DNA of 64,000 nt, taken from assembly GCA_025823825.1 (NCBI GenBank), contig GCA_025823825.1_4720.1, one strand, 5' to 3'. Position 1 is the stretch's first letter. The number at the start of each line of letters is the position of its first letter. The notes beneath the pieces were generated by a model. The model saw only the letters and a list, made by a program, of their open reading frames with translations. It was not told where the DNA came from and made no database searches. Made by a program: the position numbers and the translations under genes. Source of the stretch: a phage. Positions 7,307-64,000 of the stretch are shown piece after piece.

Positions 7307-7385
7307 GGATTTGTGTTGGCCCGTTTCGATGCCCATCGTATTTTATGGATTGTCGAATGACGTCATTTTAAGGGACATCCCCGGC

Positions 7386-7419
7386 CTCCTCCCCAGGAAA
7401 GGTGTGGGGAGGAGTTTTT
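7386..7419 (+). terminator. stem-loop plus T5 (intrinsic terminator-like)
   Basis: CCTCCTCCCC / GGGGAGGAG stem followed by TTTTT, just upstream of helicase start. Confidence 0.45.
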
Positions 7420-7449: not shown

Positions 7450-9531
7450 ATGTTGGATAGAATCAATCGTCTAATGAACCGAATAACGGTTAAAAATCAG
7501 AGTAACAATACCGTGCATATCGGGGGTATCGATGCCTGGCGTCTTTCAGATGACATTCAGCGAATATGGGGTACCTCCCGATTTATGAAACATATGTTTC
7601 GTAATTTCTCTTCTAGTGGACTCAGCCTCCACAACTTTTACCTCCCCGATTTCGTTTATATTCTCGAGACGATCATCGAAGCAAAGAATACCCGCAGTAA
7701 CAAACGCATGCTGAAACACCTTATTGAGGTACTGCTACAGGAAACCTGGTTGCAAAATACCACAATCGAGCAACCTGCAATCCTCGATAAAGCACGCATG
7801 AACAAAATGCTAACGCTCTCTTTGTTCGATTATCAAGATGAGTTTATCGACATCTATAACCGTAACGTACCTAAATACCGACTGAAAGGATACGTGTGTG
7901 CGATGGGTGCTGGTGCGGGTAAAACAATCACCGCACTGGCATTAAGCTCCGCAATGAACGTCGATGTATTTGTGGTCTGCTGTCCTAAGAACACCATGCG
8001 TTCAGCATGGCAATCCGATGTAAACAAAGCCATCGTTGACCCTGCAACAGAAACCGCGTTCTGGTCAGATACGATGCCACCATCACAGCTGCAGAAAAGC
8101 GATAAGTACTATTTTCTGCATTATGAATCGATGGGTTTATTAAACGATGTAATGATCAAGCATAAACGCACAGCGAAGCGCGTGTTGATCGTGGTTGATG
8201 AAAGCCATAACTTCAACGACAAGAACAGTCAACGTTCCCAACGACTGGTTGATCTCGTACAGACGATGCGTCAGACCATGAATGCGGATGTGCACGTCTT
8301 GTTTATGTCAGGTACACCTGTTAAACAAATGGGTTCTGAGATGATCCCATGTTTAGGTTGTATCGACCCGATGTTCCAAGGACAGGTGGTCGATAGCTTC
8401 AAAGCGATTTACGGTTTAACCAGCAGTCGCGCTAACGATATCCTCAGACATCGTCTTGGGTTCATGATGCATGTCGTACCTAAAGAGGCTTACCGTAAAA
8501 CCCGTCCGGAAGTTCAGGATGTTTACGTGAAGCTCCCTAACGGTAGCGATTATACCATCTCAAGTATCCGCGACGACATGGCGATATTTGTACGCGATCG
8601 GGCGAAGTATTACAAGGATAACTGGGGACACTACAGAAAGATTTTTGATGACGCCTTGGACTACTATCGTAAGACTATTCGTACCGACGGAGAACGTAAA
8701 GAGCTATCTCGATACGAATCGATTGTTGCTCGTTTCCAGAAAGGTTACGACCCCGTCAGAGACAAAGAAGATGCGATGTTCTGCAACGCGTTTGAAAAAC
8801 GTTCCATCATGCCGGTTCTTCCTTCTGATTTAAGGATTGCTTTCAAAGACGCTAAGAGTGTCATCAAGTACGTTGGGTTGAAAATTCAGGGTGAGGCGTT
8901 GGCCCGTGTTCTCGGTGCAGCCCGCATTCGGTGTCATGTCGATATGGTGGAGTACATCGACTTCGAAGGGTATATCAACAACGCTGAAGCCAAGGTGTTG
9001 ATCTTCACGTCGTACGTTCAGGTGGTTGAGCGTGTCGACAACATGCTTCGTGATGCGGGTTTCTTACCGGAACCCATTTACGGGAAGACCAACAAAAACA
9101 TCAACCAAATACTTGCTCGTTTACGCGACGATCCCGACAGCGGCCCCGCTATCGCAACATTTGATAGCTTAGCTGAAGGGGTTCCGATGTTGATGTGTAA
9201 CGTGGGTCTCTTCTTGAACAACCCATGGCGTTCATCCGATGAAATCCAAGCCATCAGCCGTCTCGATCGTGTAGGGCAAACGCAACCGGTTCGGATTTAT
9301 CGTTTCATGTTAGATACGGGAAGCGAGGGTAACGTTTCTACACGTAGCCACGAAATCATGGAGTTAAGTCGGCAGCTTGTTGAAGAAATCACGGGTGTCA
9401 AATACGTGGTGAACAAGCAAGACGATGTTAACTTGCAAGAAACGTTGGCGATGGAAGGATACGATCAATACGTTACCGTAAACACCACGGAATACGATAT
9501 TAAACCACGACCTGCGTTCTTGGAATGGTGA
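7450..9531 (+). CDS. SF2 (SNF2/DExH-like) helicase
   Basis: Walker A GAGAGKT and DExH box VVDESHNF; track start 7402 is a GTG inside a terminator hairpin, so ATG 7450 (MLDRINRL) is preferred. Confidence 0.7.
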   Translation: MLDRINRLMNRITVKNQSNNTVHIGGIDAWRLSDDIQRIWGTSRFMKHMFRNFSSSGLSLHNFYLPDFVYILETIIEAKNTRSNKRMLKHLIEVLLQETWLQNTTIEQPAILDKARMNKMLTLSLFDYQDEFIDIYNRNVPKYRLKGYVCAMGAGAGKTITALALSSAMNVDVFVVCCPKNTMRSAWQSDVNKAIVDPATETAFWSDTMPPSQLQKSDKYYFLHYESMGLLNDVMIKHKRTAKRVLIVVDESHNFNDKNSQRSQRLVDLVQTMRQTMNADVHVLFMSGTPVKQMGSEMIPCLGCIDPMFQGQVVDSFKAIYGLTSSRANDILRHRLGFMMHVVPKEAYRKTRPEVQDVYVKLPNGSDYTISSIRDDMAIFVRDRAKYYKDNWGHYRKIFDDALDYYRKTIRTDGERKELSRYESIVARFQKGYDPVRDKEDAMFCNAFEKRSIMPVLPSDLRIAFKDAKSVIKYVGLKIQGEALARVLGAARIRCHVDMVEYIDFEGYINNAEAKVLIFTSYVQVVERVDNMLRDAGFLPEPIYGKTNKNINQILARLRDDPDSGPAIATFDSLAEGVPMLMCNVGLFLNNPWRSSDEIQAISRLDRVGQTQPVRIYRFMLDTGSEGNVSTRSHEIMELSRQLVEEITGVKYVVNKQDDVNLQETLAMEGYDQYVTVNTTEYDIKPRPAFLEW

Positions 9532-9537
9532 TTAAGA

Positions 9538-9575
9538 AGCCCTGCCGTCAAGCAGGGCTTTATGCTGCGTTTGTT
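9538..9575 (+). terminator. intrinsic terminator-like hairpin after helicase gene
   Basis: AGCCCTGC-CGTCAA-GCAGGGCT followed by T-rich run. Confidence 0.5.
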
Positions 9576-9626
9576 GCAAGATCGTATGACGTATATGCGT
9601 TGTACTTATTTAAAAAGGCAGAATAA

Positions 9627-11081
9627 ATGAAACTCAAACAAAGCTGGAAAGACGAACTTCTCGCGTTAGTAAACAACAAAAACAGTTTACAGCTGACATT
9701 AGACGACGTAAAATTTGAACTAACTGAACCGGTAAGCGAAGTGCCCGGAACAGTCGTCGTTACGATCAAACCGAACGATGATAGCCGTTACTTTAACGAG
9801 CAGTCTCTGACCTACATCCGTCGAGACATCGCTAAAAACTTCACCGGGATCCCGTTACGTGTTATCGTTAAAAATGATACCGTCGTAAGGGATATCATCA
9901 ATACGATTGCTGAACGTTACGGATTGGTATTTGACACAACCGTTGACTTCCTCGAATCAGAGCTGAATAAGCAGATTACGTTCGAAGACACCGGTATTAA
10001 AGACATTACGGTTCCGGTTGCAAACACGTCTTATGTTTGGGCTGGTAATCTTCAGTTCAATATCGCTAACGATACGTTAAGCTTGATTACGATCATCAAG
10101 GAAACCAATCTTACGAATCTGGTTTATCTGGATGGCGTTGAAGCTGACACAACCGGATCGTTATTATTAGCAACGGCCTCGATTATCGACGATAACGGAA
10201 ATACCGAAACAACTGAAGGTGTCCTTGATGCCGAGTACTTCCAGAATGTCCTGAATGTCATGGTTCGTTATGGTGATATTACCAGCGAACAAATGCAACA
10301 AGCAATGCAGACAATTAACCAAAACGAAGACGTTCGTGAAGTGGAGGTTAAGTCATACGGCGACTCTGAGCTGTTGGTAACCACAAAGAAAGATTGGGCT
10401 ATCGGTAACCTTAAGGGCGCTATGGCAGTTGTTCGCAACGCTCAACCGAAACCAATTCAGTACATTCTCAAAACGAATGGCGGCTCCGTTACACTAGCAT
10501 TGGACGGTTGGACAAATATTTCCATCGATTGGGGTGATGGGAATAAAGCAACATTACCAGGCGGACAAACTCGCGGATTCCACGAATACAGTGACGGTAC
10601 AGAACGTACGATTGTAGCTACTGGTGTCCTCTCAAACCCTGAAGCACCAACACAGACACAAACCATCAGCGGCGATAACATCACTGAAATCGTTGACTGG
10701 AACAACGGATTACCGCAGGCTGTACAATTAACGGGATTAACCAGTTTGATTAAGGTTCCCGATTATATCCCGTCATACTGGACAACGTTGGAAAGTTTGT
10801 TCGAGAGCTGCTCATCGATAAACGACGTAAACATCACGAAATGGAATACCGGTAACGTCACATCAATGAAGAATTTGTTCTTTGGCTGTAACGTCTTCAA
10901 CCAACCGATCATCGTATGGGATGTTACCCATGTAACAAATATCGACAATATGTTCTCGGGATGTTCGGCGTTCAACCAGGATCTAAGGATGTGGTCATTC
11001 CCAGCGGATACTTCCCGCAACAACTACGATAACGGTGCTACAGCCTGGCGGTCAGAGTATCGTCCAAGCTTCGATTTGTAA
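9627..11081 (+). CDS. DUF285 (BspA-like) repeat protein, possible virion or adhesion protein
   Basis: C-terminal repeats FFGCNVFNQPIIVWDVTHVTNIDNMFSGCSAFNQDLRMW match the DUF285 repeat pattern. Confidence 0.5.
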   Translation: MKLKQSWKDELLALVNNKNSLQLTLDDVKFELTEPVSEVPGTVVVTIKPNDDSRYFNEQSLTYIRRDIAKNFTGIPLRVIVKNDTVVRDIINTIAERYGLVFDTTVDFLESELNKQITFEDTGIKDITVPVANTSYVWAGNLQFNIANDTLSLITIIKETNLTNLVYLDGVEADTTGSLLLATASIIDDNGNTETTEGVLDAEYFQNVLNVMVRYGDITSEQMQQAMQTINQNEDVREVEVKSYGDSELLVTTKKDWAIGNLKGAMAVVRNAQPKPIQYILKTNGGSVTLALDGWTNISIDWGDGNKATLPGGQTRGFHEYSDGTERTIVATGVLSNPEAPTQTQTISGDNITEIVDWNNGLPQAVQLTGLTSLIKVPDYIPSYWTTLESLFESCSSINDVNITKWNTGNVTSMKNLFFGCNVFNQPIIVWDVTHVTNIDNMFSGCSAFNQDLRMWSFPADTSRNNYDNGATAWRSEYRPSFDL

Positions 11082-11096
11082 AAAAAAAAAAAAAAA
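11080..11096. repeat. A17 homopolymer (T17 on minus strand)
   Basis: 17 consecutive A overlapping the TAA stop of the DUF285 gene. Confidence 0.9.
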
Positions 11097-11108
11097 TAGT
11101 TAGCATAT

Positions 11109-11146
11109 CTTCCTCCCTACCCATAACGGGCGGGGAGGAAGGTTTT
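11109..11146. terminator. bidirectional terminator-like hairpin
   Basis: CTTCCTCCCTACCC / GGGCGGGGAGGAAGG stem with TTTT on the plus side and the T17 run on the minus side, between convergent genes. Confidence 0.55.
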
Positions 11147-11159
11147 ATGGCGTTATAGC

Positions 11160-11498
11160 TTAGAACCAGAGTTCTTTCATGAGGTAGGCTTCCATATCGT
11201 AGATAAGCCACGCATCGGGGATTTCTAAAGGATCGTCTTCGGTTAAGGTCAGCATGTGCAGGGCGAACGCACGCTTGATATCTTCCAACAGCTTATCATC
11301 ACCGTAATCCTCGGGTAGTTTACGGTCAACCAGCTGGGTTTGTTTATAGACGTCGCGGAACGCTTCAGGGCTGTGTTTGTCCATCGGGAATTGTTCAGCA
11401 GCCTGAACCATCGTCAACGTCCAGCTTACAACATTGTAACGCTCACCGTTAATTTCACTGAACTGATCATCGATTAAACAGATTTGTTGTACGTTCAT
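11160..11498 (-). CDS. hypothetical acidic protein
   Basis: 112-aa ORF at end of a minus-strand operon. Confidence 0.5.
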   Translation of the reverse strand: MNVQQICLIDDQFSEINGERYNVVSWTLTMVQAAEQFPMDKHSPEAFRDVYKQTQLVDRKLPEDYGDDKLLEDIKRAFALHMLTLTEDDPLEIPDAWLIYDMEAYLMKELWF

Positions 11499-12388
11499 TC
11501 ATTTTCTCCATTCTTATCTTGGTCGCAATCACACTCTTCGACGTCTTTCTTACTTAAACGTAAGACACCTAGTGCAGCATGCTTGAGTTCTTGCAAAGCG
11601 CTTTTCAGCTGACCTTCTTCATCGAAATCAAAATACTTCTCGTTGTAGCTTAATGCCGGAATCATATTTACGAGAGGTTCGATGGCGGGCATCAGCATTT
11701 CAATGACGACCTTAGGATCGACAAAACGTTCAAACCCTTCAGGAAGTTTGCTCGCTACAACCTTATCGTTCTTGATGTAGAATTTGTTCTTGAATAGATC
11801 GTCAAGAATAGCATTCTCTTCATCCGTACGTTTTGCGTGAGGACGATCGATCATCTGCACAAACACACCACTCAACGCTTCAGGCAAAGTCGGATTTTCG
11901 CGAAGATAAGTTCCGGCCGGAATTTCAATGTCGATCTTCGTCCACTCAACAACCTGATGGTCTCGCGTATAGATGACGTCAACTTCCCATGCCAGACCAT
12001 CAGCGCTTTCTACGGTGTAACGTGTTTTCGCCTGGCCTTCAGGAGCCATACGTTCGATCGCATCAAACATCTCGACTGGGATTTCGACTTCGCTTTCCGT
12101 TGCATCGCCTGGACCGCGATACACCTTCGTGGTCATGATGTATTTCGGTTCTTCGTTATCGATCTGTATAGCTCGTGCTCGTACTTGACCTTTCACACCA
12201 CCAACGGCCGTGTTATCAAACAACCATTGATGTTGCACCATATGTTCGATTTTTGATGCGACTTGACGAAGACGTTCAACACCGTCTTCGGCCAGTTTAC
12301 CAAAGAAGACCAGCTCACGTTCCTGCTGTGTCTCACCACTTAACATCATTAAATTGGCGATTTGTTTCACGCCTCTTACTTTTGACAT
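11495..12388 (-). CDS. hypothetical protein
   Basis: 297-aa ORF, 4-nt overlap with downstream gene. Confidence 0.5.
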   Translation of the reverse strand: MSKVRGVKQIANLMMLSGETQQERELVFFGKLAEDGVERLRQVASKIEHMVQHQWLFDNTAVGGVKGQVRARAIQIDNEEPKYIMTTKVYRGPGDATESEVEIPVEMFDAIERMAPEGQAKTRYTVESADGLAWEVDVIYTRDHQVVEWTKIDIEIPAGTYLRENPTLPEALSGVFVQMIDRPHAKRTDEENAILDDLFKNKFYIKNDKVVASKLPEGFERFVDPKVVIEMLMPAIEPLVNMIPALSYNEKYFDFDEEGQLKSALQELKHAALGVLRLSKKDVEECDCDQDKNGENE

Positions 12389-12456
12389 ACATGCTCCGGT
12401 TATAAGGGCCTGCTTCGAGGCCCTTCATTGATTTTTGATTCCACCAAACGCTATCG

Positions 12457-14031
12457 TTACAATTCAAAATCTTCATCGATAACACGCTGGGTAAGCACTT
12501 TGTCGCTGAAGAACTCCACCTTGCGCTGATGGTATTTACGGTGCGCTTCGATAGAAGTACATACCAGATACCAGAACGTTGGCGTCATTCCTTCAAACTT
12601 TCCTTTCAGCTGACGCAGTCGTCCCAACACCTGAATGTTACCGGTTCGTGACCCCATCGCTAATGTCATGAACGTCATCACCAAGTCAGGAAGGTCGATA
12701 CCTGTACCTGCCGATTTCACCGTTGTAACGCTAATATCGTTATCCAGCAAGACCATGAAGTCTTCTTCAGCAGTATAAGGACCGATTTCTAACTCAGGGA
12801 TACGTTCACTGAGATAATGCGACAACGACTTACACATATCGACGGTTGCACAATACACCAGCATCTTCATACCTTCCTGATACTGGTTCATGAAACCCTT
12901 GATAATAACGGTATAGATGAAGTTAAAATACGCGAGTTTGAGTTGCTTGTTCTTCATGATAGACTGTTCGAATATCGTGTGCGAATAAGCTCCACCAAAC
13001 CCTTTGTATCTGACTTTATCTGTACTGCGTAGTCGGTACGTTACCGCATTTACCGCAATGTATTTCTTGTATTCGCCTTTCGCATAACGGGCTTCTTTCG
13101 GATACATCAAATACAGCATCTGTTCGATAAACGGATCATCGGATACCGCTGTTGCCGACAGATAAATGATTTCCGGAATATTGGCGTAACACTTGACCTT
13201 AAACAAGAAATGCAATGCTTCGTGACACTCGTCATGAATCAGCAAACCTATGCCGGTCTTTTCCCAAAACTCAGCGGGATGAAAGGCATATGGCGCAACG
13301 CAGTTATTCTTCTCGTAGTCCGCAATATAACGTTGGAACATGTTCAAGGAGAACAATGCGATTTTGAAGTCGAGTTCACCTTGTTCAACCAAGGTTTGAA
13401 ACTCCAACATACTGTAACGAGGAATGTCGGGATGCGGTGGATCCTCCTTAGCGTTCCCGCGTATCTCGATAACGTCCCCTGGTTCCATCCCGAAGAAGTT
13501 CAGCAGTGAGCTTCGCCAACCTGGCATGTATCTCGGCGACAGAATGATACCCGTCCGTACACCGCGTCGGAAGGTGATCTCCTGCGACATGGCCGTTTTT
13601 CCTGACCCCGTTTGAGCGGTGTTTAGGCTCATTCTGAAGGGGGTATCCTTACCCCCGTCCATGTACTCCAACCATTCTTGCTGATCTTGACGCCATGGAA
13701 ACTTCCATTTCTTTACGAACTCCACTTCTTTACCTGGTACCGGATCGTGATAGACGATTTCCAACCACTCTTTTCGTATCCCTCGGGAAAAGATAAAATC
13801 CAAAAACGATTTCAACTGTTCACGGAGTAAGTATACCTCGCTATAATCGCTTCTTGCCGCGGCATACGTGTTTATGGTATCGGTAACCATTCTCCGTGTA
13901 CGAGGGTCACGCCGTTTCCTCAGATGCAAACAACGGTCTCGAAGGTAATGGCCGATAAGATGGGCAAATCGAAGTCCGTATCCGCTCAGCCTCATGCCGT
14001 GCGAGAAGACGTCGATACGAGCTAACTTCAT
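12457..14031 (-). CDS. SF2 DEAD/DEAH-box helicase-like ATPase
   Basis: Walker A TGSGKT and DEAH-like HDECHE; ATGA start/stop overlap with upstream beta-prime-C gene. Confidence 0.6.
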   Translation of the reverse strand: MKLARIDVFSHGMRLSGYGLRFAHLIGHYLRDRCLHLRKRRDPRTRRMVTDTINTYAAARSDYSEVYLLREQLKSFLDFIFSRGIRKEWLEIVYHDPVPGKEVEFVKKWKFPWRQDQQEWLEYMDGGKDTPFRMSLNTAQTGSGKTAMSQEITFRRGVRTGIILSPRYMPGWRSSLLNFFGMEPGDVIEIRGNAKEDPPHPDIPRYSMLEFQTLVEQGELDFKIALFSLNMFQRYIADYEKNNCVAPYAFHPAEFWEKTGIGLLIHDECHEALHFLFKVKCYANIPEIIYLSATAVSDDPFIEQMLYLMYPKEARYAKGEYKKYIAVNAVTYRLRSTDKVRYKGFGGAYSHTIFEQSIMKNKQLKLAYFNFIYTVIIKGFMNQYQEGMKMLVYCATVDMCKSLSHYLSERIPELEIGPYTAEEDFMVLLDNDISVTTVKSAGTGIDLPDLVMTFMTLAMGSRTGNIQVLGRLRQLKGKFEGMTPTFWYLVCTSIEAHRKYHQRKVEFFSDKVLTQRVIDEDFEL

Positions 14032-16034
14032 AACGTGATTACATCCTCCGGTTTAGGTTCTTTACGCGGTAACAGCATGTAGTCGATCGGATGATCCGGC
14101 TTCATGGTTGGGATATAACTGTTCGGGTTTTGGAACGCATCCAGCTGCTCTTGGTGAGCGAACTTCATACTCAAGGAGCGCATGTTCATGTTCTTCTTGA
14201 AGGTACTGAAGTATCGTGTTGTTCCCTGTTTCGGCATGCGATAATCTTTCGTGTGCGGTGAACGAATCATGCTGGCGTAGAGAATAACATCGAGATGCGA
14301 AAGGTTCATTCGCAGACGCTGGGCACACAGACGATGCCAATAGTACAGCACGTTTGCAACTTCTTCCGGTGTTGCTTCGTCTTCCGAAAGGAATCCGGCA
14401 CTGAAAGAACCTTTCCCGAATTTGAATTCACGTTCGATTTCTTTTGCGTATTCCATCATGTTTTTGTGGATTAACGGCATCTGGAATAACGTACGTGAAT
14501 TGTCCCAATGTTTCAAGTCGAAAATCACAATCCCGTCAGACGTCACTTCCCAGCTATGGCGTTTAAGATAACGGATAAACGCTTTACTCGGTACAACAGG
14601 ACGTCCACAGAAATCGAAATTGACTTTGAGCTTACGATAGCTTTCATCTTTCCTGTCGTAAATCTCCATATCGCAAAGCGTCATGTTAAACAAGCGTTGC
14701 GGTATCAGCGAACTGATTTCTTCCGCTTCGGCTACGTCGTACAACATGTTCGCAAGACCTAACTTCATCTTAATCAGCACGTGTTTACCTTTCAGCTCAC
14801 GTGCGAGTTTGATGTCGTTCATGTTCTGGCTATAGCGAAGGATATGTTGATATTCCGGTGGGATTGGTGCTGTGGATACCGTTGACGAACCATCGTGGTG
14901 TTTGGTAGAAAGAATGTTCTGCGTCACCTGTTGCGAACAGGTACGCGCTGCGCCATCGCCGACATTATCAGTCAATGCGAAGTTATGACTTAATTCACCG
15001 TAACACGTTGTACATACCCCAGCAGGATCGGGATGATGACAATAGTTAACGGAGCGCATGCGTACCGTCGTGCCGATCAATTCTTTCATGTGTGGTTGTA
15101 TCGCTACCAACGAACCGTCATCACGAATAATGAATCGACCATGGAAGCCACGCAGGTCGGTCTCGTCGCGGATTGGCATCGGGATGGTCTCTTTACTACC
15201 ACAATCACCAGGATGGAGTCGTTGTACAACCGCTGTCGCTATCTGAAGTTCACGACCGAAATATTCAGACTTTTTAATCTGCTCTTTGTTGAACAGCAAC
15301 GATTTTGCCGCAGAACGACTTTCTTTCAAGCTGTCGGGAAGAGAGATCAAACCGGCTGCGTATGACCGCATTACTGGATCACGGAATATCTCGGAGTTAA
15401 TATCGGTCAAGAATCCACGCATCCCAATACACTGCAGCACCTGTCCAATCGAAACGTGTTCGGTTCTTACCGCACGTGCGATAGGGTTTGCATGTAACGT
15501 TTTATCGGTGCTCAGTACCTTTGTCAGTTTCTTGTATGCGCTTTCGATACCTTCACGGGTGGGTTCCGCTTCGGCGATGATTTTCTTAACTTCGGGATGT
15601 ACGGTAATCTGATAAAAATCGTCCGCGCAAATCGTTGTTACGTATTCCTCCAACGCATACGTAAAGAAGTTATATACGTTGTTGAACATATCGAACAGTG
15701 CTTTCCAGAGAACCTCACGATTCTCTTGTGGGTAAGCATACATGCATTGACGATACGCTGCGCTTTGCAACGCAACCGACGAACCAGCAGTAAACTTGCG
15801 TTTATCGACCAGGTTCTCTTTTGTCAATGGTGTCTCAGGATACATGCGATGCACAGACCAGTGCATGTAACTAAAGAAAATGCGTCGCGCACGCAATTCA
15901 TGAACGCCATCGTCCATCTCGATATATACACGGTCATTAGGCTGTGCCCACTCGAACACCTCATCAACCGGCCAATGCATAAGCTCGCGTGCCCTCACAC
16001 GACGTTTCGTGGTGGTCGTCTGTGTTATAGTCAT
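14028..16034 (-). CDS. multisubunit RNA polymerase beta-prime subunit, C-terminal piece
   Basis: RMRSVNYCHHPDPAGVCTTCYGELSH aligns with bacterial beta-prime [21 protein letters not shown] downstream of the bridge helix; trigger-loop-like TQNILSTKHHDGS. Confidence 0.6.
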   Translation of the reverse strand: MTITQTTTTKRRVRARELMHWPVDEVFEWAQPNDRVYIEMDDGVHELRARRIFFSYMHWSVHRMYPETPLTKENLVDKRKFTAGSSVALQSAAYRQCMYAYPQENREVLWKALFDMFNNVYNFFTYALEEYVTTICADDFYQITVHPEVKKIIAEAEPTREGIESAYKKLTKVLSTDKTLHANPIARAVRTEHVSIGQVLQCIGMRGFLTDINSEIFRDPVMRSYAAGLISLPDSLKESRSAAKSLLFNKEQIKKSEYFGRELQIATAVVQRLHPGDCGSKETIPMPIRDETDLRGFHGRFIIRDDGSLVAIQPHMKELIGTTVRMRSVNYCHHPDPAGVCTTCYGELSHNFALTDNVGDGAARTCSQQVTQNILSTKHHDGSSTVSTAPIPPEYQHILRYSQNMNDIKLARELKGKHVLIKMKLGLANMLYDVAEAEEISSLIPQRLFNMTLCDMEIYDRKDESYRKLKVNFDFCGRPVVPSKAFIRYLKRHSWEVTSDGIVIFDLKHWDNSRTLFQMPLIHKNMMEYAKEIEREFKFGKGSFSAGFLSEDEATPEEVANVLYYWHRLCAQRLRMNLSHLDVILYASMIRSPHTKDYRMPKQGTTRYFSTFKKNMNMRSLSMKFAHQEQLDAFQNPNSYIPTMKPDHPIDYMLLPRKEPKPEDVITL

Positions 16035-16778: not shown

Positions 16779-16809
16779 TCCCTCCCACCTCCACATGGGA
16801 GAGGGAGGG
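16779..16809 (-). terminator. stem-loop plus T-rich tract
   Basis: CCCTCCCACCTCC / GGGAGAGGGAGGG with T-rich sequence 3' on minus strand. Confidence 0.4.
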
Positions 16810-17206: not shown

Positions 17207-17635
17207 TTAGCAATCGTTTAAAACTTTTTCGATACGATGGTTGACGAATTCATTGAACGACTCTTCGGCTTGTTCGATAATTTCATCAACGTCGATATCT
17301 AATTGTTGGGGTTGGATAACATGCTCTTTCATGGTTTCTAGCCAGTATTCGGCTTTAACCATAACGTTAGCGACATGTTCGACCTGACTGCGTATGTCGA
17401 CGATCTGGCAGTCAGGATTGTTAATATCGATGATGTGTCCGTGGTGGTTGATAAAACCTAGCTTATTTGATGCCCTTACCGCATCGCGGGTAAGTTCTTG
17501 CAAGATTAAATTATTGACGTAGTTCACTGCTACGGAACGATTTTCGTTATCACTCATACCAGGGATCCTCTTTAAGTCTTCACATTCTAGTGTTAAGCAG
17601 TTAAAATAAACCGTTCCTTTAATCAGCATAAACAT
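17207..17635 (-). CDS. hypothetical protein
   Basis: 142-aa ORF. Confidence 0.45.
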   Translation of the reverse strand: MFMLIKGTVYFNCLTLECEDLKRIPGMSDNENRSVAVNYVNNLILQELTRDAVRASNKLGFINHHGHIIDINNPDCQIVDIRSQVEHVANVMVKAEYWLETMKEHVIQPQQLDIDVDEIIEQAEESFNEFVNHRIEKVLNDC

Positions 17636-17675
17636 CCTCCTCCCACCACATGGGCAGGAGGAGGCGTAATATGCA

Positions 17676-29910: not shown

Positions 29911-30005
29911 TTCATAGAGTGGTGGAAATTCGTAGAAAGTTACAAAAATAAAAAAGAATGGGCAGCCCCTCCCCACCCGAAGGTAGGGAGAGACCGCAAA
30001 TATAC

Positions 30006-31387: not shown

Positions 31388-31469
31388 GATTGTCCTCGTT
31401 TTCAATTTTAAGATTGCATGCGGCATAAACCCTCCCCGCCTTGTGCAGGGAGGGTAGCCATTAAATGGA

Positions 31470-32348: not shown

Positions 32349-34714
32349 CGTAGCGTTCAGCATGAGTCGCTACCTCATGCCCGCAGCTTTACCTGCAGCT
32401 TCCGGTGTTACCGGAATGTCCAGAATACATCTTATCCATATTCCAAATGGAACGTAGGACTTCCGCGCTGGATCTCGCTTGAGACCACGTATTCGTTGAA
32501 CGTTCTCCTGAACGGAGCTTCGCTGCTGATCGAACATTGTCATGTACGGTAGGCGTCCCCGAAGGGATTGTCATTGAAGCCGCGTACATCCGCTACCTTG
32601 TTTCTACCTTATCGGTTCCTCTTACGAGGCGTAGCGGCCTTAGCCCTTCCCAGCAATTCACGGAATCCAAGCTCTTCCTTTCGGAAGGCAGGGCCTATGA
32701 TTAAGCATCCCCGTCGCTGTTATCGACTATATCTTCATCCTCGTTGCGAGGAGTCTCCCGTTTTGGTCTGTGTTTAACAGAGCCTACTCTACTCGACATC
32801 GCGTCTTTCGATAGTCTGTGAGCACACATCTTAACGAACATTCGTGGATTCCTAAACAGGTGAACGTTCTTGTTGAGATGCTTCGCTGCGGATTATTCCC
32901 GTCCTACCTCTTTTACCCTACCCAGTTCATTACGCTGGCCCTCATCTGTGTCACCACGATGAGTTGGTGTGTAGTCCGATTACAGAAACTTCCCGTCAAT
33001 TAGAGAGTTTTAACTACGTTCCTGTTACCAGAAACCAGATCCCGACGGTATCAATAAATCAACGTAAGTTATTGATTTAATTGAAAAAACTGAAATCTGC
33101 ATTATCTTAATCTTCAGTATGGTTCGCTACTCCATACCCGTACGTCATGTACTGCTTACGTCTTTCACGTAAGAAGAGACTATATCTTTCACCCTCAGCA
33201 TTATCTGGTCGGGGCTCCCATTTCGGCGGTCAGATGACCGGTGGTTTCCCACGCCGCTTGGCCCTAACGCCCGTAAGCGATAGTCGTTGAGCGCATCTCC
33301 GTTCTGGAGACTTCGCTGCGGATTCCCCAATCCTTGCCGCTTTTACCATACCTGAATGATTAGTTCAGCCCCACGCTCTGTTCCCAGGCGTGGTTGGTGG
33401 ACAAGGCTCTAAGTAGGTTCCCGCATTAGAGAGTTCTGCGTGACAACATTTCTGCGTTACTGGGCCTAACGACCCTTTCAAGATCATCACGCTTAACCCG
33501 ATGGTGTTATCCTGCGGATCGCGTTTAACCTTGGTGATTTCAAGACATTGGTTACTGCTTCGGTCAAGTGATGGGTTTCGAACAAAGCCACACACAATCC
33601 CATCGAACGGTGTATCAGCAATAAGCTCATCGTGCAGCTCGCTCATCATTGGATGATAATTACGGACATGTTCCGCAACGAACGCACGTGCTGCTCTCGG
33701 TGAATAACCACGATGGAATAACTTGGATTGGATATGTTCTTTATTGGTTAAAGTAAATGGTGCGTATGGGAAATGCAGATGATAATAACGATGGTTCGCT
33801 GTTATCGAACTGATTACGGTACGCGTGGTGAATGGATGTAATGTACCTAATATGTTTTTACGTGTGATACCTTTCTTCTTACCAATGAACTCATCGAAAA
33901 TTGCTGCGTGGTATTGCAGTAGCTTCAATTGCACTTTCGCCATCCAGTTTTCTTTCTTTCTGGCGCTCAAAGGTGTTGTTGGGTGATAGATACTGTTCAA
34001 CGTACCAATAGCATCGATCGCACCTTCCATTTTGCTATCTGCATAACGACCGGTTGGCGTATTCTCGATAACGAACATCATGGCCGCAGGAAAGCTGATA
34101 TACTGGCTGAAGAACTTATCACGATGGATACGGATGAATTCTCGTAGCGTGTCAACTTTCTCCGTGTTCTTCGGTCCACGTAACGTAGGTCCTTTATACA
34201 AGATCTCCATTATGCGATCGAAGTTCTGTATAAAGCTATTTACGCCGCGACGTATCCCGAATACATCGAATTGCTGCTCCAGATAGTTCTTGAGTTCGAT
34301 GGGTCGTTTTACATTTGGACGGTAACTGGCATCAATGAGCCACGTCATCGTTTCAAAGCTTTTGATATTCAACTCGCTTGCCAGCACGAGATGGACCAAC
34401 GGGTTAATGAACGCATCAATTCCTTCAGGAACACGCGCCCAAACCGTCGAACGAATCTCCTGTTCTGCCGGGTAGGTCACGACCGTTTTACAGTTTGGAC
34501 ACACCGTGCCGAGTAGCTCACCACGATTGTAGAAACCACAACCACATTGTGGTGTGATATCCAACGTATCGCTGGAGTAAACACGGGTGATAAAACTGTT
34601 TAATTTCTTCTTCTCTTCGACGACTTTTGTATCGTAATCATTCAACAAAATCGGCGTAAAAGGAAGTTCTGCGAGCTGTCTATCGAAACTCACGATATCG
34701 AGCATGATGGCCAT
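32124..34714 (-). CDS. RNA polymerase beta-prime subunit, N-terminal piece, interrupted by three group I introns; predicted mRNA join 34714..33472, 33105..33093, 32716..32704, 32348..32124
   Basis: Zinc finger CGCGFYNRGELLGTVCPNC (CxC-x13-CxxC), RNPSLDR ~ [15 protein letters not shown] ~ IQLHPLVC. Unspliced ORF ends in junk without the catalytic motif; the join restores [21 protein letters not shown] in frame (1494 nt, 497 aa). Confidence 0.6.
32349..32703 (-). ncRNA. group I intron 3 (ORF-less, 355 nt, divergent P7)
   Basis: Third copy: GGUAGAAACAAGGUAGCGG, CAGCAGCGAAG, P7 5' strand GAAUA (32494..32490) with complementary 3' strand UAUUC (32427..32423), two P9-like hairpins, terminal G at 32349. 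Confidence 0.45.
32704..32716 (-). CDS. beta-prime-N micro-exon 3 (13 nt, CGACGGGGAUGCU)
   Basis: Completes F then encodes D-G-D-A; ends in U; a UAA follows in frame if unspliced. Confidence 0.45.
32717..33092 (-). ncRNA. group I intron 2 (ORF-less, 376 nt)
   Basis: Second copy of the same core: GGGUAGGGUAAAAGAGG...AAUCCGCAGCGAAG (32923..32881), CACAGACUAUCG with GACUA at 32816..32812, GAAGAUAUAGUCG (32736..32724), terminal G at 32717. Confidence 0.5.
33093..33105 (-). CDS. beta-prime-N micro-exon 2 (13 nt, AUAAUGCAGAUUU)
   Basis: With the preceding U encodes Y-N-A-D and first two bases of F; ends in U. Confidence 0.5.
33106..33471 (-). ncRNA. group I intron 1 (ORF-less, 366 nt)
   Basis: Tetrahymena-type core elements on the minus strand: GGUAUGGUAAAAGCGG...AAUCCGCAGCGAAGUC (33352..33311), P7 5' strand GACUA (33285..33281), J8/7-P7 3' strand AGAUAUAGUC (33187..33178), P9-like hairpins, terminal G at 33106. 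Confidence 0.6.
33472..34714 (-). CDS. beta-prime-N exon 1
   Basis: AGGAG RBS and ATG at 34714; exon ends ...AAA GGG U with U at 33472 as first base of the Tyr codon. Confidence 0.55.
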
Positions 34715-34806: not shown

Positions 34807-36702
34807 TTAGAACAGGTTGAATGCCCCACCCATGTTGTTAACGCCAACATTCGGACGATCGCTACGTGCGTAGATGTTACCGGAGATGTTACCCAGACCA
34901 CGAGCACGTGCTGCCATGTTACCACGAACAGCGGTACCTGCCAGATGCTGGATGTTCTCAGGACGGATGGTGAAGCCAGCATCAGCAGCAGCTTCGATCA
35001 GCGCCTGCAGTGCTAACGGATCGAAGTCGTAACGCATTGCCCAGCCGGTTTGTTCCCAGCTACCAGACAGAACACGATCGATGATTTCGTGACGAGCGAC
35101 AACACGCTGAGACATCGTCATATCGGTACGGTCGAAGCTGTCTTCCCAAGCTTCTACGGTATCCGGGTTAGTGATGTTCATCATGTACAGATCGTCCATA
35201 TCACGAATATCGTGACGGTGACCATCCTGGTGGTTGTAGTGACCCAGCGGGATACGGTTACCGGTAGCGTAGACCAGCGGTAAGCCGTATTGATATTTCT
35301 TGCTGAAGCAACCCAGGGTAACATCATCGAAGGCACGGTAGAGTGCTTTGTAACCTTCAGAGACTTCCCGAACATCAGCCTCAACATTACCCGTATAGAT
35401 CTTCTCAGCCGCCGGGATCATACGCAGCAGCCAGCTGTATTCGCCTTCTTCCGGTACGTCGATAGAAATCAGCAGGGACGGATACAGTACCTGTTGCAGG
35501 AACTTGTAAATCTGCTCATTGGTTTGAGTAGACAGATCCAGCGGTGCGGTAACTTCCGGATCCAGCACCATCGCCAGAGCACCCGGGTTATGCGGACCGA
35601 TACCACGAGCAGCGTTGCTGATTAAAGACTGCGCCCATGCCATGCCGCTGTTCAGCGTAGCGATGGTGCCAATCAGACCCAACACGAAAGTGTTCGGTGT
35701 GAACGCATCCAGCTCCAGCGGGTAAGCGCTGGTCATCACGTAACGCGGCTGGTATTGTACAGTCGGCGGTACCGGATAACCGTTAACCAGAACAGGGCCT
35801 TGGTTGAAGGTCGGGTTCTGCGGGCTGTAAGTCAGGTCAATGTAACCGGTGGTGGCGACCAGACGCTGTTGACTATCGTAATCGCTCATCGCTTGACGGA
35901 TGCGGTTAGAGATAGTTACAGTGATGTCAGAACGCACAGGGTTACCAACAATATCGCTGTCCTGCATACCGCTGGTGTTGTACTGAACGCTGCTGATTGG
36001 CTGATCGCTTGCCATCATGCCCAGGTTGAACTGCGGCAGACCCAGTTTATCACCGAGACGGATTTCGATTGCGGTCTGGATTGCGTTATCTGCAGCAGAC
36101 AGCAGGGTGGTCGCCAGATGCGCAGATTCAGCGGTGATTTCATTGGTCACCACAGCCAGACCAGCGATACGAGCAGTACCATTAGACTTACCGCCAATAG
36201 CTGCATACATTGCCGCCATGACTTCGTTGATGAACGTACCGTTCAGGTTATCAACCCAGGTACGCGGTACCAGAATGTTACCATGCGGACCTTGTTCTTC
36301 ACGACGCGGCAGCGGAGCCAAACCGGCAACCAGCGGAAGCACATAACCGAAGAAGTGGTTATGATCACCAACTTTTGCACCACTCATAACGACCAGGGTC
36401 GGATACGGTACGCTGTACTGGTTCGGGTCAACCGCAACAAAGATGAAGTCGTCTTTGAACTGGGTATCTTCCAGATATTTCTCCATCAGACGACGGAGAT
36501 TCAGTACCTGCTCGGAGCCGGTATTACGGCTGATACGACGGCTCAGTGTACGGTTGATCGTACGCATCGTATGAGTTACTTTAGGACGGTCGGCAAAATC
36601 TGCAGCGGTTTCCAGCGCCTCATCAGCACGTTGTGCGGTGCGGGTTTCAGCTGCACGAATTTCTACATTATCGTTACCGTTATTACGTACGTCTAAGCCC
36701 AT
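34807..36702 (-). CDS. chmA: candidate chimallin (phage-nucleus shell protein)
   Basis: 631-aa ORF with AAGAGGAA RBS directly upstream of beta-prime-N, as I recall for phiKZ gp54-gp55; size matches described chimallins; promoter-like motif 66 nt upstream. No sequence comparison possible here. Confidence 0.45.
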   Translation of the reverse strand: MGLDVRNNGNDNVEIRAAETRTAQRADEALETAADFADRPKVTHTMRTINRTLSRRISRNTGSEQVLNLRRLMEKYLEDTQFKDDFIFVAVDPNQYSVPYPTLVVMSGAKVGDHNHFFGYVLPLVAGLAPLPRREEQGPHGNILVPRTWVDNLNGTFINEVMAAMYAAIGGKSNGTARIAGLAVVTNEITAESAHLATTLLSAADNAIQTAIEIRLGDKLGLPQFNLGMMASDQPISSVQYNTSGMQDSDIVGNPVRSDITVTISNRIRQAMSDYDSQQRLVATTGYIDLTYSPQNPTFNQGPVLVNGYPVPPTVQYQPRYVMTSAYPLELDAFTPNTFVLGLIGTIATLNSGMAWAQSLISNAARGIGPHNPGALAMVLDPEVTAPLDLSTQTNEQIYKFLQQVLYPSLLISIDVPEEGEYSWLLRMIPAAEKIYTGNVEADVREVSEGYKALYRAFDDVTLGCFSKKYQYGLPLVYATGNRIPLGHYNHQDGHRHDIRDMDDLYMMNITNPDTVEAWEDSFDRTDMTMSQRVVARHEIIDRVLSGSWEQTGWAMRYDFDPLALQALIEAAADAGFTIRPENIQHLAGTAVRGNMAARARGLGNISGNIYARSDRPNVGVNNMGGAFNLF

Positions 36703-38051: not shown

Positions 38052-38117
38052 TCACCTCCCTCTTCCCTTGCATCCTCCCAACCCGTAAGGGAAGGGAGGA
38101 TGGGGTGGCGGGTTATG

Positions 38118-46548: not shown

Positions 46549-47075
46549 TTAACGACAGCTTCCTCCCTCGGTGTTTTCGAGGGAGGTATTTGCCGTTTGA
46601 AGACTTTCAGTACGTTCGCAAATTCAGCAGCAATAATACAGGCCGAGGTTGATAGCTTATTACTGAAAATGAGATCGTCCGGTAAACAATCGAACTGAAT
46701 ACCGTATTGCGTCTTTGTCTCATCAACGATCAATGACGGTGTCGATCTTGTCTTCGCGATGTCGGTGATATACAAACGTAAAAATAATTCACCGTCTTCG
46801 CTATCCATAAAACGATAGGCGTTACCAGAAAACGCAACACATGGCGTAACGATAAATTGAACACGATCGTCGGTCGGATGGATATTTAACCAACGTTCGA
46901 TATCACTGCTACTCACATTTTGCATATTTACTACGGTAAAAGCAAATAGCGTATCATGATGTTTGGAATAATGCAGCACATACGCCGCACCTTTCTTTTT
47001 GTGAATCCCTTCAATGTATTCTATTGTCGTATAGCCGGATTTATATAGCTTTGCTTTCGGTTTCTCACTCATCAT
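46539..47075 (-). CDS. hypothetical protein
   Basis: Start near 47075 (MMSEKPK) assumed; 3' end converges on the plus gene and runs through the shared hairpin. Confidence 0.45.
   Translation of the reverse strand: MMSEKPKAKLYKSGYTTIEYIEGIHKKKGAAYVLHYSKHHDTLFAFTVVNMQNVSSSDIERWLNIHPTDDRVQFIVTPCVAFSGNAYRFMDSEDGELFLRLYITDIAKTRSTPSLIVDETKTQYGIQFDCLPDDLIFSNKLSTSACIIAAEFANVLKVFKRQIPPSKTPREEAVVNQK
46562..46598 (+). terminator. terminator-like hairpin at convergent gene junction
   Basis: CCTCCCTCG-GTGTTT-CGAGGGAGG followed by T-rich TATTTGCCGTTT. Confidence 0.5.
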
Positions 47076-48596: not shown

Positions 48597-49611
48597 TGTT
48601 CATTTTCTCCATTGCAACAAATCGTTCAAGCTCGCGTAATAAACGCTCTTTTAACGCAGGATCAACTTCCGGAGCATGTTTATCACGATACCACTCTGTC
48701 CCGTTGTATTGCAGGCTAACGTGCCATGTTCCTAAAGGGCTTTCCTCTGCAGCAGCAATGAAATTCTTAACGCCGGTTTTGGTAGGATACTCCATGATAG
48801 GAACAGCCTGCTTCAGATCCATCACGGTAAGATCCTGGAAGTTATAATCCAGGAGCGTTAACGCACGTTTGTCACGTAGCAGTAACCCGCAATCCAAAAT
48901 GGTGAAATCGATACCCCAAAATTGTAGCTTACCGCCCGTACTGATAGGAATATGACCGCGATAGACCGCGAGATAGATCTCCCCCTTATCGGTTTCTTTA
49001 TTGTATCCTGCGATGAATGCTGCGGTAATTAACGGCTGATCACCTTTCGCAAAGAAAACAGGATGCGTACGATAAAGCCAATCATTACGGATTAAATCTG
49101 ATACCTGGCCTAAACGTGCCGTGGGCACCATTGTCGAGCCTAAGTCACTATTACTAACTTCGAATTGGTAATATTCAAACAGAACACCGTCGACTTCTTC
49201 TTTAGCGTATGGCTCACGAGCCGGATTAGCGAGTAGGTAACGTAACTTGTTATCGATTTCGGCTACGCGTTCCTCATGGGTATCCATACGACTAGCGATG
49301 ACGAAAGCAGCCAGATTACGTACGCTAAGGAACACGTCATCTTTCTCTTGGTCACTTAGTCCTTCTTCATCTGCTAGCGTTGTCCAATGCAGTGGCCCCT
49401 CCACCATCTTTAACCATTTGTCTTCACGCTCTGGGTAAACAAAGGGTTTATGCACAGGAACATTGGTATGCTGAACGCGCAATAGTAACGAACAAGGGGA
49501 TTGCATTATCGACTCCCATGGCACTATACCACTCGTGACAGCGATGACGTGACGATTAAGAACAAGAGAAGCTGAATAGGTGATGTTATCTAATCCTGGT
49601 AATTGATCCAT
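48574..49611 (-). CDS. hypothetical protein
   Basis: 345-aa ORF preceded by a 300-nt AT-rich intergenic region. Confidence 0.5.
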   Translation of the reverse strand: MDQLPGLDNITYSASLVLNRHVIAVTSGIVPWESIMQSPCSLLLRVQHTNVPVHKPFVYPEREDKWLKMVEGPLHWTTLADEEGLSDQEKDDVFLSVRNLAAFVIASRMDTHEERVAEIDNKLRYLLANPAREPYAKEEVDGVLFEYYQFEVSNSDLGSTMVPTARLGQVSDLIRNDWLYRTHPVFFAKGDQPLITAAFIAGYNKETDKGEIYLAVYRGHIPISTGGKLQFWGIDFTILDCGLLLRDKRALTLLDYNFQDLTVMDLKQAVPIMEYPTKTGVKNFIAAAEESPLGTWHVSLQYNGTEWYRDKHAPEVDPALKERLLRELERFVAMEKMNNDVNDEQ

Positions 49612-49866
49612 GATAGGAATCCTTAGTATGTTTGATATGTTGTTTAATTGACATATTAAGTTTAAAAGAGGTTATGTTTTACGTAATGTTAATAACGTAT
49701 TCTTATCTCTATTAAGTTATGTTCTATCTAAAGATAGTAAACAGATATAATGCTCCCCACCTCCCCATTCTCCCAAGTAATACTGGCCTACCGGCCCTCT
49801 CCTTTTTAAGGGAGAGAGTAAGCATTCAGTATTGCTCAAATGAATAAGCAAAACAGTATAAACTTA

Positions 49867-51405: not shown

Positions 51406-51510
51406 TGCATTGCCTTCCGCGAGTGCAATCAGGAAGGTAATGTAGGTTTATTTTAATCTCCATTTCGCGATGATATGACAGTCTTTATTACGTTTACCAT
51501 CTGAGGGAGC

Positions 51511-52755: not shown

Positions 52756-52948
52756 CAATGTGGCGGTAAAACTTTACTGACGTTGGTTATTATTTGAAGC
52801 ATAGGGCTTCACCCAGGAGTACCATCCCTTTAAGTCGTTTGTCCTCTCCTGGTTAACTGTCGTTCTCTCACAGTGCTCGACAGACCAAAAATGCTCAGGC
52901 CTCATAGCCTCCTCTGGGAATGGAACCCAGAGGAGGACTATGTTTGCC

Positions 52949-63115: not shown

Positions 63116-64000
63116 TGCGTCCTGATAATACCCTACTCGGTGAACAGGGTGTTGGTGCTCTTAGCAACGCGGCTATGGTCGATATTCGTGCAGGTGCCCA
63201 AAACGGGTACATCAGCAATATCGGTACGTACGTTGCTAACGCCAACTACATTCCGAACCAAATGTTCTGTCTCCTGCTGGAGGCACCGCGTGGTTTCAAC
63301 TATCTACCTAACCCGGATGTACAGATTGGTTATCTGAAGGCGCTGGTAGAAGAGGTTGCGCATTCGATTACCGGTCTGCAACGCGGATTGGAAGTTGAAT
63401 TCGTTAGCGTCCCGGTTTCTGGTTCCGGTGAAATCCAGGAAGAAGTTTCTGACGTTAAACGTCCTCGCTCTAACCCGACTTTCGGGATCTATGAGAAAGA
63501 AGGTCGTTCCGTTAGTTACTTCCTGGAACAATGGATCACGTATCTGTTGATGGATCCGGATGCCAAATACCCGATGTTGTCGTCTATCGTATCCACTGGT
63601 GGTCCAACCGACCTGCTGGCGGATTATCGTAGCGCAACGATGCTGTTCGTTGAGCCAGACCGTCAACACAAGAAAGTGGTTAACGCCTGGCTGTGCACGA
63701 ACATGATGCCTCACGGTACCGGTGACTGGACATCACGTCGTAACAAGAACGATGCGCCAAATGTGGTAGAATTGAGCATTCAGTTCACAGCGTTAACACA
63801 GACCAACTACGGTGTGCGTGCTTTTGCACAACGTCTGCTGGATAAGATGAACCTGCTCAAAGTGAACCCGGATTTCCGCCCGGCTTATCTGAGCGACATC
63901 GATCCGGCTGTGGCAGCGCAGAAGGTTGGCTATACCTTCGACTTTGATAACAACGATACCTTTGAGGTACCGAATACTTATCAAAACGTAACACCTCGCG
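63116..64000 (+). CDS. hypothetical virion-associated protein, 3' end truncated by window edge
   Basis: GAGAGGAG RBS and ATG at 63116 (MRPDNTLLGE); open frame to window end. Confidence 0.5.

Follow-up and report, generated by a model that had tools for sequence, protein, structure and literature searches.

We describe the junction between two convergent genes in a 64-kilobase (kb) stretch of phage DNA (64,000 nucleotides [nt]; GenBank assembly GCA_025823825.1, contig GCA_025823825.1_4720.1), hereafter the window, whose positions supply the coordinates used throughout. At this junction, the stop codon of a plus-strand DUF7941/DUF285 gene merges into an uninterrupted run of 17 A's, followed by a short spacer, a GC-rich hairpin, and the last stop codon of a minus-strand gene block. 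Over positions 9500-12500, the sequence is 88.5% identical to Escherichia phage vB_EcoM_Goslar (Goslar), a nucleus-forming jumbo phage, and the whole window corresponds to Goslar 135504-200195. The Goslar record has no terminator annotated at the equivalent gp161/gp162 junction. The genes and features of the locus are as follows, with protein lengths in amino acids (aa).

9627-11081, plus strand: 484-aa DUF7941/DUF285 gene, homologue of Goslar gp161, with an N-terminal DUF7941 domain and C-terminal DUF285/BspA-type leucine-rich repeats
11079-11081, plus strand: TAA stop codon of this gene; the same stop, made of a T and the A-run, is found in all 18 related assemblies
11080-11096, both strands: A17 (plus) or T17 (minus), uninterrupted and 9-17 nt long among relatives; proposed distal U-rich tract of minus-strand transcripts
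11097-11108, minus strand: 12-nt spacer ATATGCTAACTA, the TATG-type tail of a family of hairpins, with TATG at 11107-11104
11109-11141, both strands: putative terminator hairpin, consisting of pyrimidine arm CTTCCTCCCTACCC, loop ATAAC, and purine arm GGGCGGGGAGGAAG; the predicted fold of the plus-strand RNA reaches 11107-11143
11143-11153, plus strand: tail TTTTATGGCGT, resembling the phiKZ terminator tail
11160-11498, minus strand: 112-aa gene, homologue of Goslar gp162, with its stop at 11160; last gene of the minus-strand block
11495-12388, minus strand: 297-aa gene, gp163 homologue, same block
12457-14031, minus strand: helicase gene, same block
14028-16034, minus strand: RNA polymerase beta-like subunit gene, same block

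The last codons of the 484-aa open reading frame (ORF) are GAT TTG TAA. A single T at 11079 precedes the 17 A's at 11080-11096, and the stop codon is formed by this T and the first two A's of the run. A first-pass annotation of the window had described the stop as followed by 16 further A's, for A17 in total. The total is correct; the number that follows the stop is 15, since TAA takes up two. The run is the sole homopolymer of at least 8 nt in the window, where the next longest is 7 nt, and the count of such runs expected from base composition is approximately 2e-5.

The hairpin lies between the convergent stops at 11081 (plus) and 11160 (minus), where it is met by transcripts of the minus-strand block. 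An inverted-repeat scan delimits two arms of 14 nt each (11109-11122 and 11128-11141) around the loop ATAAC, with 12 Watson-Crick pairs, one T.G pair, and one A/C mismatch. Folding either strand as RNA gives predicted energies between -25 and -29 kcal/mol, with z-scores of -3.3 and -3.6. On the plus strand, the sequence past the stem is TTTTATGG, and this side offers UUUU only. On the minus strand, U17 is reached 12 nt (AUAUGCUAACUA) after the stem, and the T17 run thus does not abut the hairpin. The first 8 nt past the stem on this strand (AUAUGCUA) contain three U's, and U17 begins at +13. Because of this offset, the run is not a canonical U-tract, and on neither strand does a U-tract begin 0-2 nt after the stem, as it does in canonical Rho-independent terminators. 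A simple consensus terminator scan called the site (11079-11160) on neither strand, and a consensus scan for sigma-70-like promoters found none across the run. No Rfam family matched the window at the gathering threshold, and within 11000-11250 none scored E <= 1; a repeat scan of the window found no repeats beyond chance. TATG is present on both flanks of the hairpin, at 11104-11107 (minus strand) and 11146-11149 (plus strand).

We find that the hairpin resembles the intrinsic terminators of phage phiKZ. A terminator motif, 5'-BCCYCCCCHWWDGGGRRGGBYTTATKYYGT-3', has been published for phiKZ, in which 61 terminators were mapped by ONT-cappable-seq (Putzeys et al. 2024, PMC10914365); six cases of the motif are bidirectional and lie between convergent genes (PMC10914365). 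Motif A of phage 201phi2-1 resembles it, and eight 201phi2-1 terminators were functional in vivo in a terminator trap (PMC11512511). At our junction, the stem has a CCYCCCC-like 5' arm and a GGGRRGG-like 3' arm (CTTCCTCCC...GGGAGGAAG), a design also seen in the roughly 30 Goslar copies described below and in phiKZ copies located with the published motif. On the plus strand, GG-TTTTATGGCGT fits the phiKZ tail BYTTATKYYGT at 10 of 11 positions. The minus-strand tail, ATATGCTAAC, is a partial match to TTAT(K)YYGT, like those of other Goslar copies. The stem design shows compensatory changes (see below), and the site is a convergent junction in a phage that encodes phiKZ-like RNA polymerases. We file the hairpin as phiKZ-type because it shares the design of the published motif and because its tail fits at all but one position. 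The element is most likely a bidirectional intrinsic terminator of this chimallivirus type, placed at a convergent junction. This agrees with the first-pass annotation, which had recognized the features of a bidirectional terminator in a hairpin between convergent genes.

The resemblance to phiKZ and 201phi2-1 extends beyond the motif. In all cases, a GC-rich stem-loop combines a pyrimidine 5' arm, a purine 3' arm, and a TTAT(G) tail; many copies are present per genome, at intergenic positions, and are bidirectional between convergent genes; and the carriers are nucleus-forming jumbo phages with their own multisubunit RNA polymerases. There are also differences. Stems of the Goslar lineage are longer (~10 + 3-4 base pairs, with an inner CCCG/GGG mini-stem), and the published motif ends at the tail, with no distal T homopolymer described. 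Moreover, 3' ends have been mapped in phiKZ, whereas the Goslar-lineage element is known from sequence alone. Bidirectional Rho-independent terminators, composed of an A-tract, a hairpin, and a U-tract, were reportedly described in E. coli by Ju and colleagues in 2019. These likewise place one hairpin between convergent genes, with an A-run and T's on opposite sides. However, both of their tracts abut the stem, whereas here the run is 12 nt off and the other side has T4. The polymerases acting here are, in addition, presumably the phage's own.

The hairpin belongs to a repeat family. We scanned Goslar and the window for hairpins whose 5' arm is pyrimidine and whose 3' arm is purine, and detected approximately 30 family-like elements in Goslar and the following 10 in the window.

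7385-7415: family hairpin
11107 (start): family hairpin of the junction described here
16780-16809: family hairpin
17633-17664: family hairpin
29969-29990: family hairpin
31429-31455: family hairpin
38060-38102: family hairpin, starting at 38060/38071
46560-46588: family hairpin
51410-51440: family hairpin
52907-52937: family hairpin

The family has a common design, in which CATA(a) is followed by ACCCTCCTCC, AACCCGTAAGGGAA, and GGAGGAGGG, and then by (A/T)TATG(CTGTTAT). Its members are intergenic and palindromic, with a AACCCGTAAGGGAA-like loop, and the Goslar record leaves most of them without a terminator annotation. Among 22 aligned paralogous copies, compensatory double changes occur at 8 of the 11 consensus stem pairs. 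The tail (A/T)TATGCTGT is common to other Goslar hairpins, and nearly every family hairpin has a TATG within ~10 nt on each strand. TATG (G = +1) is the essential late-promoter motif of the phiKZ non-virion RNA polymerase, and the published phiKZ terminator motif likewise ends in TTATK, which suggests that terminators and start sites may be coupled.

Some annotated Goslar ORFs start at the ATG of a TATG tail, namely gp047 (49584-49772), gp167 (152177-152272), and gp183 (166088-166924). In these ORFs, the purine arm of the hairpin forms an apparent Shine-Dalgarno sequence, and window equivalents lie near 16780 and 31429. Two of the ORFs are tiny, at 62 and 31 aa, and the terminator motif may have caused them to be annotated in error.

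Long homopolymers in the complete Goslar genome, for which RNA-seq data have been published (bioRxiv 10.1101/2023.09.20.558163), show a strict strand bias. Among runs of at least 9 nt, nine are A-runs on the plus strand and none are T-runs. The plus strand is the minority coding strand, and the runs are therefore T on the main coding strand, each 7-14 nt downstream of a hairpin. When the duplicated ends of the record are counted once, the nine runs occupy seven places. Four of these share one order: plus-gene stop, A-run, 10-14 nt, hairpin, (T)TTATG, and convergent minus gene. They follow gp36 (portal), gp43 (DnaB-like), gp161 (the same site as window 11080), and gp217 (tail tube). At gp187/gp001, A17 lies between two hairpins and comes after the hairpin of the plus gene. 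Position 108101 is co-directional, between two minus genes, and carries T10CGT11 9 nt after a hairpin. The seventh place is a canonical hairpin with T8. A minus-strand hairpin with a T-run 0-14 nt later is common to all seven. Given the layouts at gp187/gp001 and 108101, the invariant is thus a hairpin followed by a T-run, not a stop followed by an A-run.

These runs are also concentrated at convergent junctions. With junctions counted from the annotation, runs of at least 9 nt are found at 5 of 20 convergent junctions in Goslar versus 1 of ~206 others (Fisher P = 1.9e-5). For the 26 other hairpins, with homopolymer sites excluded, the minus-strand T fraction at +11 to +20 is 0.47-0.56, against a background of 0.26 (P = 1.6e-8). 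Because the T-rich bias persists without the homopolymer sites, T17 is the most extreme case of a distal T-rich zone that generally accompanies these hairpins on the main coding strand. Inspection of six Goslar sites revealed no sequence shared on either side of the runs that would represent an early-promoter-like motif.

Two further observations concern the Goslar runs. The ends of the Goslar record NC_048170 (1-56 and 237252-237307) repeat the same 41 nt, a ttggaggagggttatgccgtcaagc segment plus A-run, and finish in A17 and A16. A homopolymer was apparently the point at which this linear record was opened, and the record seems to retain a short assembly overlap. The next Goslar element with the architecture of our junction, A12 at 200204-200215, follows the tail-tube gene. 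As the window end, position 64000, corresponds to Goslar 200195, 9 nt short of this run, a second copy would lie just outside the window.

The same layout recurs in phiKZ, where our comparison covers the first 100 kb. All nine T-runs of at least 8 nt are on the main coding strand, ~5-22 nt from a hairpin; the single A8 run (57967) does not fit the pattern of hairpin then T-run. Two runs are at convergent junctions. At PHIKZ041.3/042, a hairpin at 34918 is followed by ATTATGTC and T9AT8 (34946-34963), and at PHIKZ076.3/076.4, a hairpin is followed by 10 nt and T9 (71435-71443). In both, the TAA of the opposing gene overlaps the far edge of the run, as it does at 11079-11081. At 075/076, which is co-directional, the hairpin is followed by ATTATGC and T9. 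Since co-directional cases exist, the run would serve the strand on which it reads as T, not the opposing gene.

The convergent phiKZ junctions and ours are alike in having a main-strand hairpin, a short tail (7-10 nt in phiKZ), and a T-run that supplies the opposing TAA. They differ in that the phiKZ runs are shorter (8-9 nt) and, in a 63% A+T genome, less improbable, and the sequences are unrelated apart from the motif. The first-pass annotation had read the tract as the U-run of the minus-strand operon, and this holds in part. The strand bias and hairpin layout in Goslar and phiKZ do point to minus-strand transcripts, but the tract is not adjacent to the hairpin, and a conserved 12-nt tail of the TATG type intervenes.

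We compared 19 assemblies, comprising the window, ten related genomes or contigs, and eight assemblies that encode an identical 112-aa protein. All ten relatives have the stop formed by T and the A-run, a spacer of equal length (three variable positions), and the same hairpin, in which the sole change falls at an unpaired bulge. Their runs are 10, 11, or 12 nt long, while those of the eight assemblies measure 9, 10, 11, 11, 11, 12, at least 12, and 15 nt. The overall range is 9-17 nt. The run is unbroken by substitution and never shorter than 9 nt in 19 of 19 assemblies, despite ~10% divergence and a variable adjacent gene. Pairwise identity is 97-98% in the hairpin, 55-80% in the C-terminal half of the DUF285 gene, and ~92% elsewhere. 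One assembly is 99.8% identical to the window over 1.9 kb, and two contigs terminate at or beside the run. A third relative from IMG/VR (UViG_3300045988_173921) lacks the A17/hairpin site.

The first-pass annotation had suggested that the tract is prone to slippage and that related phage genomes be compared. Across these assemblies, the length is indeed not invariant: the closest of the eight, at 98.1-98.5% identity to the window over 3.3 kb, align with it with exactly one gap, which is the run itself. Length differences between relatives are also found at other run sites (A9/A10, A12/A10, and A6/A8). The suggestion that such variation could alter the C-terminus of the DUF285 protein, in contrast, fails. 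The TAA is composed of T and the first two A's, and every allele from A9 to A17 retains it. As this stop sits at the 5' edge of the run, run length cannot change the protein. A C-terminal extension or frameshift of the DUF285 gene was rejected on the same grounds, and in-frame TAG/TAG stops lie beyond the TAA.

From these observations, we propose a model in which the GC-rich hairpin and its short TTAT/TATG tail would form the core stop signal on both strands. T17 would be a second, distal T-rich signal that reinforces termination, or promotes pausing and release, of minus-strand polymerases that have passed the hairpin. These polymerases would thereby be kept from running antisense, or colliding, into the plus-strand DUF285 gene. 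Replication slippage, to which a long homopolymer is prone, would add and remove units of the run with no coding consequence. We regard this joint model, of a bidirectional hairpin-plus-tail terminator with a distal U-run that stalls escaping minus-strand polymerases and drifts in length, as rather probable overall. We infer from family membership that RNA 3' ends form at the element. That the run contributes to termination is suggested by its strand bias, its junction bias, its persistence among relatives, and its recurrence in phiKZ.

Several points weigh against this model. A gap of 12 nt is too far for the classical mechanism of hairpin plus U-tract. Since 15 of the 20 convergent-junction hairpins, like most of the family, have no long run, basic termination does not require one. 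Composition or mutation, as opposed to function, could account for part of the T-rich bias. In addition, metagenome assemblies can mis-size long homopolymers.

A first rival to the model is neutral slippage, whereby a run that arose in an A/T-rich spacer and grew past ~8 nt has random-walked in length and has no function. The range of 9-17 nt, seen even among strains 98% identical, is what such a process would produce, as are the drifting lengths at other sites, and most family hairpins do without a long run. However, neutral drift does not readily account for the lack of any substitution within the run, or of any length below 9 nt, in all 19 assemblies, nor for the strict strand bias in Goslar (nine A-runs versus no T-runs of at least 9 nt), the enrichment at convergent junctions (P = 1.9e-5), or the recurrence of the layout in the distantly related phiKZ. 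We consider it unlikely. Alternatively, the run might act as a silencer. TATG, with G as +1, is the late-promoter consensus of the phiKZ non-virion RNA polymerase and is essential for initiation (PMC4666361; PMC12809450). The minus-strand TATG at 11107-11104 would then start antisense RNA into the DUF285 gene, and the T-run, at +9 to +25 of such transcripts, would make them slip or abort. This would suit the TATG motifs that flank almost every family hairpin on either strand, as well as the enrichment of runs at convergent junctions. Yet no such run accompanies the TATG on the plus strand (11146-11149), the one directed at the minus gene; runs are also found at co-directional junctions (Goslar 108101 and phiKZ 70301), where the downstream gene must be expressed; and TATG alone is insufficient for promoter activity (PMC4666361). 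We judge silencing improbable.

Slightly less probable again is that the A-run acts within the plus-strand mRNA or as a DNA element, either as poly(A) in a 3' untranslated region (binding Hfq or another RNA-binding protein, affecting stability, or providing stop context) or as a rigid dA:dT boundary for recombination. The run does come 0-8 nt after the plus gene's stop in four of the five convergent Goslar cases, and in assembly L037 a different DUF285 C-terminal allele is joined at the run. Nevertheless, at gp187/gp001 the run follows the plus gene's hairpin, there is no opposing gene at Goslar 108101, phiKZ 70301, or phiKZ 32945, and the conserved hairpin alone would provide homology for recombination. 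Least credible of all is a phase-variable locus, in which run length would switch the DUF285 C-terminus or a small minus-strand ORF, and we give it almost no weight. Close relatives are polymorphic in length (9, 10, 11, 12, 15, and 17 nt with an identical 112-aa neighbour), and a minus-strand frame of 22 codons, which starts from the ATG at 11106 and is preceded by a GGAGG-like arm, passes through the run. Against this, the stop precedes the variable part, all alleles have the same C-terminus for a given flank, and the sequence contradicts such switching, as the run is outside the reading frame of the DUF285 gene and outside any recognized promoter spacer. The 22-codon mini-ORF was rejected as a phase-variable gene: it is short, it is not conserved, and its frame shifts with alleles that differ by a non-multiple of three. 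The run thus shares with the homopolymer contingency loci of bacteria and phages a slippage-prone tract that is polymorphic between close strains, but, unlike theirs, its length switches nothing visible in the sequence.

A more speculative extension of our terminator model concerns the polymerase itself. Archaeal RNA polymerase and eukaryotic RNA polymerase III terminate at oligo-T, and a long T-run could destabilise the RNA:DNA hybrid. By analogy, a T-run in the non-template strand could release a polymerase without an adjacent hairpin, although the parallel with the window is purely one of analogy. T homopolymers 7-14 nt past a hairpin might then be a hairpin-independent second stop signal for the non-canonical chimallivirus RNA polymerases, or might neutralise the outward-facing TATG start present in every palindromic terminator. 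We offer this tentatively and think it unlikely to hold. Such a second stop signal could be used preferentially at operons that face an opposing gene, with packing so tight that the run's edge provides the opposing TAA. If true, either form of this idea would provide a rule for insulating convergent genes inside the phage nucleus.

The terminator itself would be a further instance, in a Goslar-like phage of E. coli, of a type known from mapping in phiKZ and 201phi2-1, and the only undescribed part is the distal T-run at convergent junctions. The family design provides a rule for annotating terminators in Goslar-like genomes, where the RefSeq annotation misses this site. As the only long homopolymers in these genomes are sense-strand T-runs past terminator hairpins, they suggest a hypothesis on the termination signals of phage polymerases. 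Annotators should not take these runs, which are hypervariable and break assemblies, for sites of frameshifting or phase variation.

The genes that flank the element differ in how well they are characterized. The 484-aa protein matches DUF7941 (1.6e-23) and DUF285 (4.3e-21) in Pfam, and a role in host recognition has been proposed for the gp161-type protein (bioRxiv 10.64898/2026.04.21.720040). The 112-aa protein has no Pfam match, and no wider homologues beyond Goslar-like phages were found in the phage collection. For the minus-strand block, the syntenic Goslar region includes annotated RNA polymerase beta-like subunits.

Variability at the locus peaks in the C-terminal half of the DUF7941/DUF285 gene (~10150-11080). 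In assembly L037, a right flank of the window type is joined to a DUF285 C-terminus of the Goslar type. This junction indicates allele exchange with the conserved element as boundary. This half of the protein carries the leucine-rich repeats, and the pattern is consistent with the exchange of a host-recognition module bounded by a conserved terminator. A variable C-terminus followed by a hairpin also recalls a diversity-generating retroelement, a candidate that we rejected: a blastn search of the window at word size 7 turned up no further copy of 10150-11100 that could serve as template repeat, the variable region is ~900 nt long, and the differences are not limited to adenines.

Some close relatives differ in the orientation of the inner stem and loop of the hairpin, an inner palindrome that is flipped while the outer stem is retained. 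One such flip, at the equivalent of window 11116-11135, is seen in L040 (an SRR36325783 contig), with CCCCGCCCGTTATGGGTAGGG versus CCCTACCCATAACGGGCGGGG. Another is found at the Goslar gp043 junction, where L025 and L028 differ as TTCCCTTACGGGTT versus AACCCGTAAGGGAA.

Elsewhere in the window, the segment 32718-33474 differs from Goslar in that the HNH endonuclease gene gp186 (Goslar ~168217-169281) is absent. Here, ~368 nt (33106-33473) have no match in the corresponding Goslar stretch, and the segment annotated as a group I intron (32720-33105) is kept.

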